Positions 6,721 through 31,653 of a stretch of 32,000 nucleotides of DNA are shown here, piece by piece (position 1 is the stretch's first letter; each line of letters begins with the position of its first letter). The stretch is from an uncultured Clostridia bacterium (lineage in GTDB: Bacteria; Bacillota; Clostridia; Christensenellales; Aristaeellaceae). Below the pieces are notes generated by a model. It was not told the origin of the DNA. It did no database searches and saw nothing but the letters and a program-made list of their open reading frames with translations. The position numbers and the translations under genes are program-made. The stretch covers positions 66,950-98,949 of the forward strand of contig CAKUFG010000006.1 in the NCBI GenBank assembly GCA_934647235.1. Reading direction: 5' to 3'.

Positions 6721-6757
6721 AGCGAAGCCTCCCGGTTTCTGAAGAATACAGCCGCTA

Positions 6758-7423
6758 TCATAGCACAGTTTCATTGCCTGCGCAAGACGGCGCGGTGTCT
6801 TTCTCTCGTTTCCCCGCGCGCTGCACAATGCCGATCAGCTGCCCGGACAGAATGACCGTCAGCAGCGAATACAGGATGCGCCGCAGCGGGATGTAGGTGA
6901 GCGACAGCCCCAGCACGATCAGATCGCTGATCAGATAAATCCACTGGATGGGAATGCGGGTCACATGCTCCAGGCTCATGGACAGCGCATCGTCCCCGCC
7001 CGGCGCGCCGCCCGCGCGCACGCACAGTCCCACGCCCACGCCCACGAACATCGCGCCCGCCACCGCGGCGATCAGCGGGTGCTCGGATAATTCGGGAACC
7101 AGGATAGGAAACTGCTCAAACACGGCGTAAAACAGCGAAAAAGCGCCGCCCGCCACGATGGAGCGCGCCACGAACCCGCGCCCCAGCAGCCGCCAGCCCA
7201 GCAGGTAGCAGGCGGCGTTGAGAATCAGCGAGCTGACAGAGGGCGATATGCCCAGCCAGTGATGCCCCAGCAGCGTCAGCCCCAGCACGCCGCCCTCGGT
7301 TACGCCCGATATGGAGTGCACCTGATACAGCCCGAAGGCCAGGATGGCGCTGCCAGACAGCAGCAAAAACAGCTCCCTGCGCGTGACGGCCAGGGAGGCG
7401 AAAAGCGCCTTGATTTTTTTCAT
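6758..7423 (-). CDS. YitT/YczE-family integral membrane protein
   Basis: Start at the internal ATG (MKKIKALFASL...) with a GAAAGGG RBS. Polytopic protein with YitT-like GG-rich helices. Lies 37 nt upstream of the S-component gene, so they probably form an operon. Confidence 0.65.
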   Translation of the reverse strand: MKKIKALFASLAVTRRELFLLLSGSAILAFGLYQVHSISGVTEGGVLGLTLLGHHWLGISPSVSSLILNAACYLLGWRLLGRGFVARSIVAGGAFSLFYAVFEQFPILVPELSEHPLIAAVAGAMFVGVGVGLCVRAGGAPGGDDALSMSLEHVTRIPIQWIYLISDLIVLGLSLTYIPLRRILYSLLTVILSGQLIGIVQRAGKREKDTAPSCAGNETVL

Positions 7424-7617: not shown

Positions 7618-7709
7618 GAAAGGGGACGAGGGGGCGAGAAAGGGGACGAGGGGGTACGTTACTTTCTTCACTGAAGAAAGTAACGTTCCCTTCGTTCTTT
7701 CCGTCCTCC
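7618..7709. repeat. Solo T element: two tandem purine-rich 20-mers, a 31-nt perfect palindrome and a pyrimidine-rich arm
   Basis: GAAAGGGGACGAGGGGG occurs twice (7618-7634, 7638-7654). The palindrome ACGTTACTTTCTTCACTGAAGAAAGTAACGT spans 7656-7686. TCCCTTCGTTCTTTCCGTCCTCC (7687-7709) ends directly at the GNAT stop codon. Confidence 0.85.
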
Positions 7710-8498: not shown

Positions 8499-8653
8499 TT
8501 TCATTTCCTCCATATTTTGTGATAGGTGAATAGGGAGCAAGGACGAGGGGGAGAGACGAGGGGACGTTACTTTCTTCAGTGAAGAAAGTAACAAAGAACC
8601 GGTTTTGCGTAAAAGCTGCTGGAATTAAACTGAAAGACAGGATTGCTGTAGAG

Positions 8654-8777
8654 CCCCGTGGCAGGGAAAAACTTGAATCGCTCGGTCTGGAGCAAGCTCC
8701 GCCCGCGCGCTTTTGCCTTTTTCCCCTATGGCCGTGCTGCGCACGTCCGCGCCGATTAAAATCGGCGTGCCACGGGG
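8654..8777. repeat. X module, alpha type (copy X1)
   Basis: CCCCGTGGCA (8654-8663) and TGCCACGGGG (8768-8777) close a multi-hairpin domain. Confidence 0.7.
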
Positions 8778-8877
8778 GCGTAGTTGGATGCGGAACCCTT
8801 GTGCGGTGATTTGCAATAGCTGGAGAGTGTACTCACCCAAAGGCTTCTCCTTGAGGAGAGGCTCCGCCGTAGGCGGT

Positions 8878-8955
8878 GGTGAGGTGTAGACCACGCAGTG
8901 GTCGTTATCATAACTATATAAAAGATAACGCCGCTGCGGCGGCTACACCTCATCC
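8878..8955. repeat. Y module, cloverleaf-like four-way junction (copy Y-A)
   Basis: GGTGAGGTGTAG and CTACACCTCATCC close three hairpins (GACCAC-GCA-GTGGTC, GTTATC..GATAAC, CCGC-TGCG-GCGG). Confidence 0.7.
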
Positions 8956-9059
8956 GAGCGGCTAAAGCCGCCCACCTTCCCCTCCAAGGGGAAGGCTTTT
9001 GGTGACCGTTCTATCTTACACTCGCTTTCCGCTGCGTCTGATTCCCACACCCAACCACG

Positions 9060-9185
9060 CCCCTCGTGGCACGCTGATCGCAGATCAGCGCGGGCGTGCG
9101 CAGCACGACCAAGGGGGAAAGCAGGAAGCGAACGGAGGAAAGCTTGCTTTCATCCGGGCGGTTCAGGCTTTCACCTGCCACGGGG
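9060..9185. repeat. X module, beta type (copy X3), inverted relative to X1
   Basis: CCCCTCGTGGCA and TGCCACGGGG close the domain. Nearly identical to 31378-31501. Confidence 0.7.
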
Positions 9186-9301
9186 CGGGTGGCCAGGGCC
9201 ACACCCAGTTTTATTCAATTGACTTTCACGTCGCACGCAGCTTTCTTTGGTACTTTCTTGGGCTCCAAGAAAGTACCGTTTTCCTCGTCCCCCTCGTCCC
9301 C

Positions 9302-10312
9302 TTATCTCCGGTTCTTGCGGTTGTACCTGGCAATTTGCTTCATTTTTTCATGCTTGGCGGCCAGCTGCGCCGCGCGGTCGGATTCCGCCGTCAGCGCCTG
9401 ATAGCGCTGCCATAGCCCCGCGTCCAGCGCGCCGCTTGCCAGCGCGGCGCGCACGGCGCAGCCCGGCTCGCAGGTGTGGGTGCAGTTGGAAAAGCGGCAG
9501 CGGCCGATCAGCTCCTCCACCGGCGCAAAGCTGTCGCGCAGCCCCTCACGGGCGAAAAGCAGCCCCATCTCGCGCATGCCGGGGGTGTCGATAATCATCG
9601 CGCCGCCGGGCAGCATCAGCAGCTGGCGCGCGGTGGTGGTGTGCCGCCCCTTGCCATCCTGGGCGCGGATGGCGGCGGTTGCCTGCGCATCCTGTCCCAG
9701 CAGGGCATTGATCAGGCTGGATTTGCCCACGCCCGAGCTGCCTAAGATCACCAGCGTGCGGCCGGGGGCCAGATAGGGCACAAGCCCCGCCATGCCCGCG
9801 CCCGTGGCGGCCGATACCGCCAGCGCCGGGACGTCGGGAAAGCGCTGCTGCACGGCGGCCAGATAGGGCTGGGCATCGGCGCACAGATCGGCCTTGGTCA
9901 GCAGGATCACCGGCGCGCCCCCGCTCTGCAGGGCCAGCGCCAGCGTGCGCTCCAGCCGCGGCAGGTTAAAATCCTGATTGAGCGATTGCGCAATCAGCAC
10001 GGTGTCAAAATTGGCCGCCACGGCCTGGGCCACGCGCCCCGGCGTGGGATCGCGGCGCGCAAAGCAGCTGCGGCGCGGCAGGGTGCGCACAATGGCGCTG
10101 TCGCCCGCCTGCTGCCAGGCAAGCAGCACAAAATCGCCCACGGTGGGAAACGTCTCGCCGCCGTAGTAGTACGCGCCGCCGCGCAGGGTGGCAAAGCCCG
10201 CGCCCGCATCGCACACAATCTGATAGCGGCCGCGATGCTCGCCTACAACGCGCGCGGCCAGGCAGGGGGAGTAGTCGTTGGGGTCGGTATACCCATAAGC
10301 TGAGATATGCAA
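9302..10312 (-). CDS. rsgA: Ribosome small-subunit-dependent GTPase A
   Basis: Circularly permuted GTPase motifs (TKAD, GSSGVGKSS, DTPG) and a C-terminal zinc knuckle (CRFSNCTHTCEPGC). TTG at 10312 lies 8 nt after GGAGG and is preferred. The listed start at 10351 is also TTG. Confidence 0.85.
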   Translation of the reverse strand: MHISAYGYTDPNDYSPCLAARVVGEHRGRYQIVCDAGAGFATLRGGAYYYGGETFPTVGDFVLLAWQQAGDSAIVRTLPRRSCFARRDPTPGRVAQAVAANFDTVLIAQSLNQDFNLPRLERTLALALQSGGAPVILLTKADLCADAQPYLAAVQQRFPDVPALAVSAATGAGMAGLVPYLAPGRTLVILGSSGVGKSSLINALLGQDAQATAAIRAQDGKGRHTTTARQLLMLPGGAMIIDTPGMREMGLLFAREGLRDSFAPVEELIGRCRFSNCTHTCEPGCAVRAALASGALDAGLWQRYQALTAESDRAAQLAAKHEKMKQIARYNRKNRR

Positions 10313-10527
10313 TTGTGATTCCTCCAAGTCAAAAACAGCAAAACGCCGCAAGAACCGCAGCGGTCCTCACGGCGTGAAGAAGCGTTCTGCGGGCGCAAAT
10401 GGATGCAGCAAACAAGGCGAACGCGCAGCGCAGTTCGCACTCTTCGGTTACATAGCGACTAAGCGCCTTACAGAACCGACATCCATTGCCCCTTTCGCGC
10501 TTCCCTTGGGGGAAGCATTATAGATAT

Positions 10528-10556
10528 AGTATAGCACCCCTTGCCGCAAAAAGCAA
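10528..10556 (-). promoter_or_regulatory. Candidate extended -10 promoter for rsgA
   Basis: On the minus strand: TTGCTT, 17 nt, with TGC directly preceding TATACT. Confidence 0.5.
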
Positions 10557-10626
10557 CGCCAAATATAAAACGGCCGGTTTTAGCGGCTTTTTGCGCAAAT
10601 TTGCCCCCCTTTTGCGCCAAAACCGC

Positions 10627-10655
10627 TTGTACAATCGATAAAGATGGTATATAAT
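10627..10655 (+). promoter_or_regulatory. Candidate sigma-70-type promoter for pgk
   Basis: TTGTAC (10627-10632), 17 nt, TATAAT (10650-10655). It sits about 70 nt upstream of the pgk ATG. Confidence 0.6.
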
Positions 10656-10725
10656 GGACGATGTGTGCGGGCCTTTGCCCGTCTCAAGCTGACGCCCCAA
10701 TTTTCCAGCAAAAAGGAGAATGATT

Positions 10726-12021
10726 ATGAAAAAGACCATCGAAGACGTAAACGTACAGGGCAAAAAAGTGCTTGTCCGCGTGGACTTCAACGTGCCCATG
10801 GACAAGGAAACCGGCACCAAGATCACCGATGAAAACCGCATCATCGGCGCGCTGCCTACCATCCAGTATCTGCTCAGCCACGGCGCGGCCGTGATCCTGT
10901 GCTCCCATATGGGCAAGCCCCACAATGTGCTGAACGCCAAGCTCAAGCTGAACAAGAAGGAGCTGGCCAAGATTGCCGACCTGCCCGCCGAGGAGCAGGA
11001 GGCCGCCACCGAGAAGGCCCTCAAGAAGGCCGCTCAGGATGTGACCAAGCTGTCCCTGGCTCCCGTGGCCAAGCGCCTGGGCGAGCTGCTGGGCCAGGAA
11101 GTGATCATGGCCAAGGACGTAATCGGCGAAGACGCCAAGGCCAAGGCCGCCGCGCTGCAGCCCGGCCAGGTGCTGCTGCTGGAAAACCTGCGCTTCCATG
11201 CTGAAGAAGAGAAGAACGATCCCGACTTCGCCAAGGCGCTGGCTTCCTATGCCGATCTGTATGTAAACGACGCCTTCGGCACCGCGCACCGCGCGCATGC
11301 CTCCACCGCCGGCGTGGCCGCCTATCTGCCCGCCGTTTCCGGCTACCTGATTGAAAAAGAGCTCAAGTTCCTGGGCAGCGCCGTGGATAACCCCGCCCGT
11401 CCCTTCGTGGCCATCCTGGGCGGCGCCAAGGTTTCCTCCAAGATCGGCGTGATCACCAACCTGATCGACAAGTGCGACGCGCTGATCATCGGCGGCGGCA
11501 TGGCTTACACCTTCGTCAAGGCCATGGGCGGCAGCATCGGCAACAGCCTGCTGGAAGAGGACAAGCTGGATCTGTCCCGCGAGATCATGGAAAAGGCCAA
11601 GGCCAAGGGCATCAAGTTCCTGCTGCCCATCGACACCGTGTGCGCCGACAGCTTCTCCAACGACGCCAACACCCAGGTGGTGCCCGTCAGCGAGATTCCC
11701 GATGGCTGGGAGGGCATGGACATCGGCCCCAAGACCCAGGCGCTCTTTGCCGAGACCATCAAGAACGCCAAGACCGTTGTCTGGAACGGCCCCATGGGCG
11801 TGTTCGAGTTCCCCAATTTCGCCAAGGGCACCATCGCTGTGGCGCAGGCCATGGCGGATTCTGACGCTGTGACCATCGTTGGCGGCGGCGACAGCGCGGC
11901 GGCCGTGACCCAGCTGGGTTTCGCGGACAAGATCGATCACATCTCCACCGGCGGCGGCGCGAGCCTGGAGTTCCTGGAAGGCAAGACCCTGCCCGGCGTT
12001 GCGGCCCTGAACGATAAGTAA
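10726..12021 (+). CDS. pgk: Phosphoglycerate kinase (with an extra N-domain segment of about 36 aa)
   Basis: Strongly Pgk-like throughout ([44 protein letters not shown]). ATG at 10726 lies 6 nt after AGGAGA. Confidence 0.95.
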
Positions 12022-12252
12022 GATACGAAAAGGGACGAGGGGAACGAGGAAACGGGGGAAACGTTACTTTCTTCAGTCATAGCGCCGCCGCAGGCGGCTG
12101 AGGGCGCGCAATTTTGCAAATTGCCGCCCGAAACCCGCGCTTGCCGCAAGGCAGTAGCGCGGGGCGTACAAGGAAAGTAACAAAGAACCTGTGTGTGACG
12201 TAAAAGTCAAGCTGATAAAACTGGGAGTGGCCCTGTCCACCTGCTGCCCCAC

Positions 12253-12372
12253 CCCCGTGGCAGGGAAAATTCGCGTGTCCGGATCGGCGCAAGCGCCATC
12301 CGTTCACTTGAATATTTCCCCTATGGCCTGGCTTCGCCAGCCCGCGCCGATTAAAATCGGCGTGCCACGGGG
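12253..12372. repeat. X module, alpha type (copy X2)
   Basis: CCCCGTGGCA (12253-12262) and TGCCACGGGG (12363-12372) close the domain. It shares the hairpin CGCCGATTAAAATCGGCG with X1. Confidence 0.7.
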
Positions 12373-12477
12373 CATGTTGGTTGATTGCGAAAACTCTGCG
12401 CGGCGATTAGCGGCTGTTGGAAAACGCACTCACCAAAAGGCTTCTCCTTGAGGAGAAGCTGTCAGCGAGAACTGACT

Positions 12478-12554
12478 GATGAGGTGTAGGCTGCGCAGCA
12501 GCCGTTAGCAAAGCTATATAGAGGATAACGCCGCAGCGGCGGCTACACCTCATC
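12478..12554. repeat. Y module (copy Y-B)
   Basis: GATGAGGTGTAG and CTACACCTCATC close three hairpins. Confidence 0.7.
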
Positions 12555-12777
12555 CGCTTCACTGCGTTCAGCACCTTCCCCTCGGAGGGGAAGGCTTCCG
12601 TAGGCTGTGCCAATGCAGCAGCATACCTTCGCCACTTGCAAAGCGCACGACTATAAAAGCCTTCTCCTAAACGGGAGAAGGTGTCGAGCGCACCGCGAGA
12701 CGGATGAGGGGGTTCCCTCAAACGTTCCCCATTCATCCCCTCCCCATCCTTAATTAGCAGTAAAAGGAGATAAAACA

Positions 12778-13530
12778 ATGCGTACTCCCATTATCGCTGG
12801 CAACTGGAAAATGAACAAGACCCCTGCCGAGGCGACCCAGCTGATCCAGGAGCTCAAGCCCCTGGTGAAGGACGCCAAGAGCACCGTGGTTGTGTGCGTG
12901 CCCGCCCTGTGCGTGCATGCCGCCAAGCAGGCCGCCCGCGGCAGCAAGATCAAGGTGGGCGTGCAGAACATGCACTGGGCTGCCTCCGGCGCCTACACGG
13001 GCGAGCTGTCCGCCGATATGTGCAAGGCTTGCGGCGTGGACTATGTGATCGTAGGCCACAGCGAGCGCCGTCAGTACTTTGGCGAAACCGACGAGACCGT
13101 CAACAAGCGCGCGCTGGCCGTGGTTCGCGCGGGCATGACCCCCATCATCTGCGTGGGTGAGCGCAAGGAGCAGCGCGAAGCCGGCTACACCGACGCGCTG
13201 GTGGAGTATCAGACCCTGATCGCCCTGACCGGCATGACCCCGGACGAGGTGAAGAAGGTTGTCATCGCTTACGAGCCCGTATGGGCCATCGGCACGGGCC
13301 TGACCGCCACGGACGAGCAGGCCAACGAGACCATCGGCGTCATCCGCGCCGCGCTGGCCCGCAAGTATGGCAAGCGCGTGGCAGACAAGGTGCGCATTCA
13401 GTACGGCGGCAGCATGAAGCCCTCCAACGTGGACGGCCTGATGAAGCAGCCCGAAATCGACGGCGGCCTGATCGGCGGCGCGTCCCTGAAGGCAGAGGAT
13501 TTCGCCCGCATCGTCAACTATCAAGAATAA
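12778..13530 (+). CDS. tpiA: Triosephosphate isomerase
   Basis: Canonical TIM motifs (IAGNWKMN, VGHSERR, AYEPVWAIGTG, YGGS). AAAAGGAGA RBS. Confidence 0.95.
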   Translation: MRTPIIAGNWKMNKTPAEATQLIQELKPLVKDAKSTVVVCVPALCVHAAKQAARGSKIKVGVQNMHWAASGAYTGELSADMCKACGVDYVIVGHSERRQYFGETDETVNKRALAVVRAGMTPIICVGERKEQREAGYTDALVEYQTLIALTGMTPDEVKKVVIAYEPVWAIGTGLTATDEQANETIGVIRAALARKYGKRVADKVRIQYGGSMKPSNVDGLMKQPEIDGGLIGGASLKAEDFARIVNYQE

Positions 13531-30878: not shown

Positions 30879-30955
30879 TGTGAGGGCCGTAGCCGCCGCA
30901 GCGGCGTTATCTTATATAGTTATGATAACGGCTGCTTCGCAGCCTACACCTCATC
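30879..30955. repeat. Y module, degenerate copy (Y-C1, inverted)
   Basis: The three internal hairpins are intact. The closing helix is interrupted (GTGAGGGCCGTAG versus CTACACCTCATC). Confidence 0.55.
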
Positions 30956-31199
30956 AGTCAGCTCTCGCTGACAGCTTCTCCTCAAGGAGAAGCCTTTTGG
31001 GTGATCGCACTCTCCAACGCATGTAAACTGCCGCGCTCCCCCCTCATCCGTCTCGCTGTGCGTTCGACACCTTCTCCCGAGGGAGAAGGCTTTTATAGTC
31101 GTGCTTTTGCTAAACTAAGCTTCGAGAACGCACTACCGCATTGGCACAGCCGCCAAAAGCCTTCCCCTTTGAGGGGAAGGTGGCGAATGTAATGAGCCG

Positions 31200-31274
31200 G
31201 ATGAGGTGTAGCCGCCGCAGCGGCGTTATCTTATATAGTTATGATAACGGCTGCTTCGCAGCCTACACCTCATC
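31200..31274. repeat. Y module (Y-C2, inverted)
   Basis: GATGAGGTGTAG and CTACACCTCATC close three hairpins. Confidence 0.7.
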
Positions 31275-31377
31275 AGTCAGCATTCGCTGACAGCTTCTCC
31301 TCAAGGAGAAGCCTTTTGGTGGCTGTTCTTTCCAGCTATCGATAGCCGTTATGCTTGATTTTCGCACCTAGCCATCG

Positions 31378-31501: not shown

Positions 31502-31653
31502 GTAGGGCGGCAGGTGGCCAGGGCCACTCCCTGTTTTCGTCCAATAGACTTTTACGTCACACACAGGTTCTTTGTTACTTTCTTCACTGAAGAAAGTAAC
31601 GTCCTCCCCGTTTCCCCGCCCTCCTCGTCCCTCCATGCCAGAAAGGAACCGTC

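Follow-up and report, generated by a model that had tools for sequence, protein, structure and literature searches.

The 32,000-nt window analysed here (contig CAKUFG010000006.1 of assembly GCA_934647235.1) comes from an uncultured, spore-forming gut bacterium of the Clostridia with ~58% G+C. Three of its long intergenic regions, between the GNAT and RsgA genes, between the PGK and TIM genes, and after the pyroglutamyl peptidase gene, hold copies of a structured sequence that we call the Y module, each set within a larger hairpin-bounded unit. A sequence-only reading had placed four Y copies at 8878-8955, 12478-12554, 31200-31274 and 30879-30955 (copies A, B, C and D), and had described them as a cloverleaf-like four-way junction that is not a tRNA. 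The sequence confirms all four positions. Copies A and B lie on the + strand and copies C and D in the opposite orientation (inverted repeats I1-I3, I9 and I11-12 of the window comparison).

Y modules and their units in the window

The helices proposed for Y were recovered nearly as first drawn. The closing helix is GATGAGGTGTAG paired with CTACACCTCATC; copy D is degenerate, as had been noted, its 5' closing strand having decayed to TGTGAGGGCCGTAG. Arm 1, hereafter hairpin P, reads GGCTGC-GCA-GCAGCC in copy B (12478..12554, +) and GACCAC-GCA-GTGGTC in copy A (8878..8955, +), a difference of three compensated pairs. Arm 3, hereafter hairpin Q, reads (G)CCGC-TGCG-GCGG(C), with GCCGC-AGCG-GCGGC in copy B, and the small hairpin that precedes Y covaries as well (CCGCC-GTA-GGCGG versus GTCAGC-GAGAA-CTGAC). 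Arm 2, GTTATC with GATAAC, is intact in copies A, C and D but imperfect in B (GTTAGC...GATAAC), where an A/T-rich spacer and a weak arm 2 separate P from Q.

Minimum-free-energy folds were multi-branched, with a four-way junction in copies B and C and, in copy A, a competing long hairpin as well. Folded as single strands, the copies had z-scores of -3.7 to -10.5 as RNA and -3.2 to -8.4 as DNA, equalled by 0-1 of 200 shuffles. The Y pattern is far beyond chance, and the same architecture is present at more than 100 loci of other genomes.

A covariance model of the unit end module (R1) found nine copies in the window, making up three complete units, one truncated unit and two half-units of a second type, X, whose closing block is GATGAGGGG. 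Whole unit A, CACCCAAAG...CTTTTGGTG, spans 8834..9004 (+) exactly as the earlier reading had it (R1 matches at 8839-8889(+) and 8943-8999(-)). Whole unit B occupies 12431..12600 (+) between PGK and TIM (matches at 12436-12489(+) and 12543-12598(-)) and runs in the order CACCAAAAG, T hairpin GCTTCTCC-TTGA-GGAGAAGC, small hairpin GTCAGC..CTGAC, Y, small hairpin, T hairpin CCTTCCCC-TCGG-AGGGGAAGG. The inverted copy C (31200..31274, -), identified by its sequence, inverted repeats and fold, lies in whole unit C, CGCCAAAAG...CTTTTGGTG, at 31151..31321 (-) (matches at 31156-31211(+) and 31263-31316(-)). In truncated unit D (30879..31003, -), with its degenerate left closing strand, only the right end module is intact (30944-30997).

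A two-fold symmetric unit with covarying hairpins is widespread in Clostridia

Scanning one genome per species with the pattern TGAGGTGTAG-N40-65-CTACACCTCA, its interior left free, returned at least 110 loci. About 100 of the matches listed have the Y order: closing helix, hairpin, CGTT(A), A/T-rich spacer, (T)AACG, hairpin, closing helix. At least 38 Clostridia assemblies from gut and rumen carry them, several copies to a genome; the hosts include Oscillospiraceae, Acutalibacteraceae and Ruminococcus.

Aligning 71 distinct Y sequences (alignment A1) revealed that five of the six pairs of P (96% paired) have changed on both sides, as have four of the six pairs of Q (98% paired); this degree of covariation was reached by none of 500 shuffles and by no slid control. 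Arm 2 has just two invariant pairs and is 65% paired overall, and the RNAalifold consensus contains the closing helix, P and Q without it. The four-way junction is therefore local to this species: the cloverleaf-like shape proposed from the window stands there but does not extend to the family, where arm 2 fails. The conserved Y core is a closing helix and two hairpins around an A/T-rich spacer.

The whole unit is ~170 nt long and two-fold symmetric, with Y at its centre. From the outside inwards, each half consists of an A-tract, a T hairpin, a small hairpin of variable sequence with a GNA loop, the conserved, purine-rich block (G/T)GATGAGGTG(TAG), and then P on one side or Q on the other; read along one strand, the outermost tract is of A on the left of the unit and of T on the right. 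The T hairpin is a homopyrimidine/homopurine stem, (S)CTTCYCC-TTGA-GGRGAAG(S), that borders Y units on both sides in nearly every genome. P and Q resemble repetitive extragenic palindromic (REP) sequences: in each, GTAG leads into a G+C stem with a GNA loop. What we call the closing helix is the inner blocks of two inverted end modules: because the two GATGAGGTG blocks are inverted, they pair in a single strand or a cruciform.

The covariation predicted for the hairpins from the window copies was borne out in the wider family by the end modules as well as by A1. In an alignment of 68 end modules, the small hairpin covaries at six of its six pairs and the T hairpin at two of eight positions (C-G/G-C 42:23 and C-G/U-A 46:20). 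In loci picked without the pattern, changes at the inner positions of the closing helix are compensated (GAGGTG/CACCTC, GAGGGG/CCCCTC, GAGGGT/ACCCTC, GAGGTCC/GGACCTC), while GATGAGG/CCTCATC is invariant in those loci since their detection demanded it. Loops have a strong polarity. Read inwards, 99 of 144 P and Q triloops are GNA and one is TNC, and among 30 small-hairpin loops the counts are 22 and one.

The suggestion that the hairpin-bounded unit is a nested mini-element gains support from other genomes, where the Y unit stands alone in unique A/T-rich flanks. Its hairpin-type terminal inverted repeats are kept far beyond this species, and many relatives of the unit have no P or Q hairpins at all. 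The 12-nt closing block GATGAGGTG, the T hairpin and the loop G and A are conserved over dozens of species that differ in G+C content and flanks. In several rabbit-gut metagenome-assembled genomes (L008, L022, L035, L047, L057, L084, L105, L108 and others) the unit is enclosed by a further inverted repeat, TAACAATGACA...TGTCATTGTTA, that parallels the CACCAAAAG layer of the window species; this outer layer is either a lineage-specific extension of the palindrome or a sign of nesting in another element.

Unit ends flank genes for predicted DUF559 nucleases

An all-against-all comparison of open reading frames (ORFs) in the Y-selected loci revealed a family of ~115-aa proteins; of its seven members, six have a Y module no more than ~450 nt away. 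The family is DUF559 (Pfam PF04480, E = 5e-31), and its closest solved structure is an endonuclease-like protein of Neisseria gonorrhoeae, 3HRL (E = 8e-14). DUF559 proteins are predicted to be Vsr-like nucleases, with no known activity (PMC1189080, PMC3424549). Together with VSR, DUF2726 and I-Bth0305I it forms one clade of PD-(D/E)XK enzymes, which thus includes both a mismatch-nicking repair enzyme and a selfish homing nuclease, I-Bth0305I (PMC3424549). Compared with Vsr and I-Bth0305I, the DUF559 proteins found here are short (~115 aa), consist of the nuclease domain only, and are encoded outside introns and inteins.

We then took the protein as the starting point, in a sample of 80 metagenomic DUF559 loci chosen without regard to Y. 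Unit ends occurred at 1.65 per kb within 250 nt of the DUF559 ORF and at 0.038 per kb elsewhere, an enrichment of ~44-fold. An end lay within 200 nt of the ORF in 33 of the 80 loci, at least one end faced inwards in 19, and both ends were present in 8-10, so that these inverted ends are common to the unit and to a longer, protein-coding element, as are those of miniature inverted-repeat transposable elements (MITEs). Homopyrimidine/homopurine hairpins within 200 nt of the ORF were present in 78 of the 80 loci (10.6 per kb, against 0.38 per kb elsewhere).

In sequence, these loci run from a T hairpin and a small hairpin through GATGAGGTG to the ORF; after the stop codon come CACCTCATC and a second small hairpin and T hairpin. 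In six loci (L118, L120, L121, L123, L132 and L137) GAGGTG lies 3-6 nt upstream of the start codon, at Shine-Dalgarno distance. The ORF comes after hairpin P in L116 and L124 and before Q in L120, and it therefore takes the place of the arm-2 spacer.

One locus, L017, carries two DUF559 copies within 2 kb. Upstream of the second, at 455-560, a right and a left X-type end stand back to back (..CCCCTCATCC, hairpins, 17 nt, hairpins, TGATGAGGGG, ORF), an arrangement repeated in L125 and L126. The gene can therefore sit between units and not just inside them. The ORFs that lie between paired Y modules in L013, L017, L055 and L105 were considered as candidates for an associated gene and set aside as ordinary housekeeping genes.

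The ends resemble BoxC/PIT/TMECO repeats

BoxC/PIT/TMECO repeats of Escherichia coli and other Proteobacteria were reportedly treated by Hoyne and colleagues in 2000. The TMECO consensus is CCCTCNCCC N3-6 GGGNGAGGG N3 GGGNGAGGG; the repeats are intergenic, have no strand bias, include five inverted pairs of two subtypes in strain MG1655, lie in variable regions and have no associated mobile gene (PMC4666352). Neither ycjD nor DUF559 is mentioned in that study (Holder et al., 2015; PMC4666352).

Four loci of Bosea caraganae (L042, L069, L075 and L078) matched the Y scan pattern. Their repeat, CCCTCTCC-TGTA-AGGAGAGGG-CAG-GGTGAGGTGTAGGCC ... GGCCTACACCTCA-CCC..-CCCTCTCC-TTAC-AGGAGAGGG, joins BoxC-type ends to an exact Y closing helix (GGTGAGGTGTAGGCC...GGCCTACACCTCACC) around an unrelated core of ~60 nt. 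The ends follow the TMECO block order and come near its consensus, and the Y closing strand serves as their third purine block.

DUF559 genes in distant phyla lie beside similar motifs. In E. coli K-12 (L196, NC_000913.3 1351204-1351802), TMECO no. 9 (1,351,204-1,351,239) is found 168 nt downstream of ycjD, which encodes a DUF559 protein. The ycjD start codon falls inside a perfect 17-nt inverted repeat, TCACCTCATTCTGACAA/TTGTCAGAATGAGGTGA (AATGAGGTGA/TCACCTCATT), that has the same ATGAGGTG/CACCTCAT core as Y; the E. coli evidence is from this one locus. The ycjD stop codon overlaps a CCCTCTCCC..GCGAGGGGG hairpin. Motifs of the BoxC-like pyrimidine/purine/purine type also flank DUF559 genes in representatives of four more phyla or classes, Sinorhizobium meliloti (L200), N. 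gonorrhoeae (L199), Deinococcus proteolyticus (L198) and Synechocystis (L197). Those of Deinococcus form an inverted pair, ~20 nt upstream of the start and 3 nt past the stop, and in Sinorhizobium palindromic BoxC-like pairs stand on both sides.

Y units and BoxC repeats share a number of traits: firstly, both are intergenic and multicopy, without strand bias and with raised local variability between strains; secondly, both have a pyrimidine block, a loop, a purine block, a spacer and a second purine block (GGGTGAGGG in BoxC, GATGAGGTG in Y); thirdly, both often occur as inverted pairs of two subtypes (a- and b-type ends) with the third blocks facing inwards. They also differ. The 3-nt second loop of BoxC corresponds to a hairpin of 15-25 nt in Y, the pyrimidine block is CTTCYCC in Y and CCCTCNCCC in BoxC, and Y, whose hosts are Firmicutes, has two REP-like hairpins and an A/T-rich spacer at its centre. 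Y ends, which read CTTCYCC N4-5 GGRGAAG, 17-25 nt, GATGAGGTG, fall outside the strict TMECO consensus.

A probable DNA-level repeat related to DUF559 cassettes

We consider it probable that Y is the core of a ~170-nt interspersed DNA repeat, an ORF-less derivative of a DUF559 cassette comparable to a MITE or to a REP doublet forming a hairpin (REPIN), and a relative of BoxC/PIT/TMECO repeats. The same end modules flank DUF559, with the ORF sometimes between P and Q, and Y can therefore be read as the ORF-less, non-autonomous relative: Y would stand to the DUF559 cassette as a MITE stands to an insertion sequence (IS), or a REPIN to its REP-associated tyrosine transposase (RAYT). The two-fold symmetry, the lack of orientation preference, the polarity of the GNA loops and the strain polymorphism favour a repeat that acts at the level of DNA over a gene for a structured RNA.

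That the unit is instead a structured RNA, either a multicopy small RNA or a cis-acting element of a 3' or 5' untranslated region in which CACCUC would sequester GAGGUG and the T hairpins would terminate transcription, appears unlikely to us, although several observations point that way. The hairpins covary strongly, folding gives very negative z-scores, GAGGTG stands at Shine-Dalgarno spacing before DUF559 start codons, and the T hairpins, which face outwards and run into CTTTT, conform to the terminator consensus. The Rfam entry nearest to the end module is whalefall-1 (RF01762), found in whale-fall metagenomes only, which those who described it regarded as a likely RNA (Weinberg et al., 2010; PMC2864571). 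Its layout is similar (UCuCuCC-UuGG-GGaGaGA, 23 nt, AGgGuGAGGAC), but it was described as a noncoding RNA rather than a DNA repeat, and at 16.6 bits the match falls below membership, far under the gathering score of 37.

The arrangement of the units argues against an RNA. They are intergenic and mostly at gene 3' ends: among 52 classifiable sites (gene-context counts that rest on crude ORF calls), 22 were convergent, 23 tandem and 7 divergent, and at tandem sites the P-first orientation ran with transcription 11 times and against it 9 times. Such two-fold symmetric units thus have no orientation preference relative to the flanking genes. Moreover, the strand that carries GNA switches from top in the left half to bottom in the right, and any single transcript would therefore have half GNA and half UNC loops; selected RNA hairpins usually have GNRA or UNCG loops. 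The C(GNA)G triloop is by contrast a hallmark of stable DNA, forming exceptionally stable mini-hairpins. Finally, dozens of copies occur per genome in unrelated contexts, with inversion and rearrangement between strains.

By definition, a REP sequence has GTAG or GTGG and then an imperfect palindrome rich in G+C, S(7-13) L(2-4) S(7-13) (PMC4690160), and a REPIN is an inverted pair of REPs with a spacer (PMC3337134, PMC5581495). P and Q have GTAG and a hairpin on both sides, with loops of 3-4 nt and stems of only 5-7 bp, and are inverted around a 20-45-nt spacer in ~100 copies among the matches listed. The likeness to REPs, REPINs and bacterial interspersed mosaic elements extends further, to doublets of two types, mosaics with other modules, many intergenic copies, a bias to gene 3' ends and possibly the principle of one protein gene with many ORF-less copies. 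It is nonetheless rather improbable, in our estimate, that Y is a REPIN mobilised by a single-copy RAYT (a Y1 HUH enzyme) encoded elsewhere, with an incidental link to DUF559. The gene found between the same ends, where they are ~44-fold enriched, encodes a PD-(D/E)XK (Vsr-like) nuclease and not a Y1 HUH enzyme; it can be multicopy (L017); many relatives of the unit lack P and Q; the stems are shorter than the 7-13 bp of the REP definition; and half a Y unit has three hairpins where a REP has one. A search of the ~850 kb that surround more than 115 units, with an HUH regular expression and phmmer (IS608 TnpA as query), detected no Y1 transposase (RAYT/IS200), which is a weak test given that RAYTs are single-copy genes.

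Small modular repeats such as Correia elements, pneumococcal BOX and RUP, and Bacillus bcr1 offer a further comparison. Y shares with MITEs and the modular repeats of Gram-positive bacteria its ~170-nt length, inverted ends, strong predicted structure, intergenic location, many copies and longer relatives with an ORF between the same ends. Unlike MITEs, Y comes with no identified DDE transposase or target-site duplication, and the conservation of its ends spans family-level taxa where theirs stays within one species.

Strain polymorphism at unit loci

Four contigs (L111-L114) from strains with an identical TIM protein were compared with the window; this protein turned up in 174 index blocks of metagenome assemblies. 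Three alleles were found at the PGK-TIM locus: the window and L114 carry a type B unit (+) and L112 a type A unit (+), and in L111 and L113 the type A unit is inverted. L111 lacks the entire ~470-nt composite at the GNAT-RsgA locus. The Y core of a third locus has expanded in L114 to five arms that form a perfect palindrome (P, spacer, Q, spacer', P'; 11531-11726) and has collapsed to a single hairpin, GATGAGGTGTAGGCTGCGCAGCCTACACCTCATC, in L113 (11410-11530). A 27-nt hairpin that occurs once at window positions 7658-7684 lies in L112 (4240-5030) on both sides of a 745-bp palindromic composite that holds a Y unit, which looks like either an empty/filled pair or a deletion between two copies. 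An 86-nt stretch, 12598-12683, is present in the window and L114 and missing in L112; its edges lie in the similar hairpins GGGGAAGG and GGAGAAGG, which suggests that the indel may have arisen by recombination between repeated hairpins.

Such events could also be produced if the units were passive palindromic debris, terminator-like hairpins multiplied by slippage and recombination without a dedicated enzyme. The composites are nested palindromes, the indels are edged by similar hairpins (the 86-nt stretch between GGGGAAGG and GGAGAAGG, the 745-bp block between 27-nt hairpins), and Y cores at one locus have collapsed or expanded in different strains. We judge this explanation distinctly improbable. 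The closing block, T hairpin and loop G and A are conserved over dozens of species, and such conservation across differing G+C and flanks implies purifying selection or active spread. Moreover, the loci are unrelated in each genome, and there is a specific, cross-phylum link to one nuclease family.

A tRNA-like or tRNA-derived origin, to which only the ~77-nt size and cloverleaf-like shape in this species point, can practically be dismissed: ARAGORN finds no tRNA or tmRNA in the window, the Rfam tRNA model (RF00005) is silent at Y while finding a real tRNA in L022, there are no D-loop, T-loop or anticodon features, and the third arm is not conserved. None of these readings, whether RNA, RAYT-mobilised REPIN, debris or tRNA, accounts for the association with DUF559.

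Several points weigh against a mobile repeat derived from DUF559 cassettes. The empty and filled sites differ by whole palindrome-bounded composites and not by a clean single Y unit, and no target-site duplication is evident, the sole empty/filled pair being bounded by the 27-nt palindrome (once in the window, twice in L112). No DUF559 gene was found in 115 kb of this species (the window and L111-L114). The geometry at DUF559 loci is variable, with complete units or outward-facing ends beside the ORF in 13 of the 33 loci. As the search pattern fixed the closing helix in A1, its conservation there is uninformative. Inverted repeats of mobile elements can covary without ever base-pairing, and termination, protection of 3' untranslated regions and Shine-Dalgarno-like sequestering are candidate roles at the RNA level. 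An intrastrand triplex as in TMECO, with GATGAGG antiparallel to the purine arm of the T hairpin (G.G, A.A, T.A), is a possibility by sequence register, in which GATGAGG against reversed GGAGAAG is compatible at seven of seven positions for CTTCTCC ends and at six of seven for the commoner CTTCCCC, with no covariation. Nuclease activity and transposition of the units are what we infer from these arrangements.

Known RNA classes, plasmids and viruses

In keeping with the earlier reading, Y could be assigned to no curated Rfam family: Rfam 15 gave nothing at the gathering score in the window and 12 related loci. At E <= 10 there was no match over 8600-12800, with chance or weak matches only elsewhere. 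A hammerhead ribozyme was rejected because copy B has CTGATGAG fully paired within its closing helix, a GAAA core is lacking and none of the Rfam hammerhead models matched. An integron attC or a Xer/dif site, brought to mind by GTTA...TAAC around an A/T core, was set aside since arm 2 is not conserved in the family and there are no cassette arrays; the resemblance to a flip/flop hairpin of the type found in parvovirus inverted terminal repeats is one of shape only.

The unit had no blastn match in the plasmid collection PLSDB, and the Y pattern was found in one of 2.9 million viral contigs. That contig (L115, IMG/VR UViG_3300029620_000416) has Y at 6744-6827, with typical end modules, at the contig edge. 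Literature searches returned primers only for the closing-helix strings and nothing relevant on repeats of Oscillospiraceae or Faecalibacterium or on functions of DUF559 or ycjD.

Other modules of the window

The two X-type half-units lie at 12656..12745 (+) and 31037..31093 (-). The first is directly upstream of the TIM start (R1 match at 12656-12710) and consists of a T hairpin, CCTTCTCC-TAAAC-GGGAGAAGG, a small hairpin and GGATGAGGGGG, with the closing block GATGAGGGG in place of GATGAGGTG. The second is inverted (CCCCCCTCATCC, small hairpin, T hairpin; inverted repeat I10; R1 match at 31041-31093(-)).

Unit A lies within an outer palindrome, 8653..9186, with arms at ~8653-8833 and ~9005-9186 (inverted repeats I14 and I17). 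In the predicted fold, the entire GNAT-RsgA intergenic region, 8595-9301, forms one imperfect foldback of ~600 nt (z = -16.7), and Y occupies the apex. Both arms of the outer palindrome are species-specific modules found also beside units B and C (repeats D1, D4, D6 and I4).

The 27-nt hairpin, GTTACTTTCTTCA(C/G)TGAAGAAAGTAAC, has a homopyrimidine/homopurine stem flanked by purine tracts of the GGGGACGAGGGG type, and besides 7658-7684 has sites at 8566-8592, 31574-31600 and 9248-9278. Downstream of PGK, the loop of the 27-nt hairpin holds a ~96-nt multi-hairpin module at 12077-12172 (GCCGCC-GCA-GGCGGC, GGGCGCGCAATTT..AATTGCCGCCC, CCCGCGC..GCGCGGG). This module is present in the window and L112 and absent at that site from L111, L113 and L114, where it is found at other loci instead.

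Implications

If Y units are repeats derived from DUF559 cassettes, their structures would matter at the level of DNA, as is suggested by the two-fold symmetry of the unit, by its indifference to gene orientation and by the C(GNA)G triloops. DNA-level folding, recognition by the nuclease and mobilisation are steps that we infer. In such a scheme, the hairpins, and possibly an intrastrand triplex, would form in transiently single-stranded or cruciform DNA; the DUF559 nuclease would recognise the folded end module; and nicking there might seed copies, inversions and deletions. The T hairpins, facing outwards and followed by T-runs, could incidentally terminate transcripts or stabilise the 3' ends of either flanking gene.

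To our knowledge, BoxC/PIT/TMECO repeats have been known for ~30 years, and in that time no origin, function or associated protein has been assigned to them; DUF559 is a widespread predicted nuclease family to which no role has been assigned. Together, the Y unit, its Bosea relatives and the DUF559 loci of five phyla suggest that the repeats and DUF559 are one system. With more doubt than confidence, we therefore propose that DUF559 proteins, E. coli YcjD and its relatives among them, may be the missing partner enzyme of BoxC/PIT/TMECO-type repeats across bacteria: a Vsr-like nuclease that would recognise a folded homopyrimidine/homopurine hairpin and purine block and spread or maintain ORF-less copies, Y units included.

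The units are abundant and strongly structured, and are easily mistaken for noncoding RNA genes when metagenome-assembled genomes of Oscillospirales are annotated; they also mark hotspots of strain-level rearrangement beside housekeeping genes. If the proposed partnership is true, it would be a second association of a nuclease with its repeats after the manner of RAYTs and REPINs, here with a nuclease of another fold. A large DUF would gain a function, repeats unexplained since the 1990s would gain an origin, and a whole class of interspersed repeats would become experimentally tractable, with E. coli ycjD and its 23 TMECO copies as a test bed.

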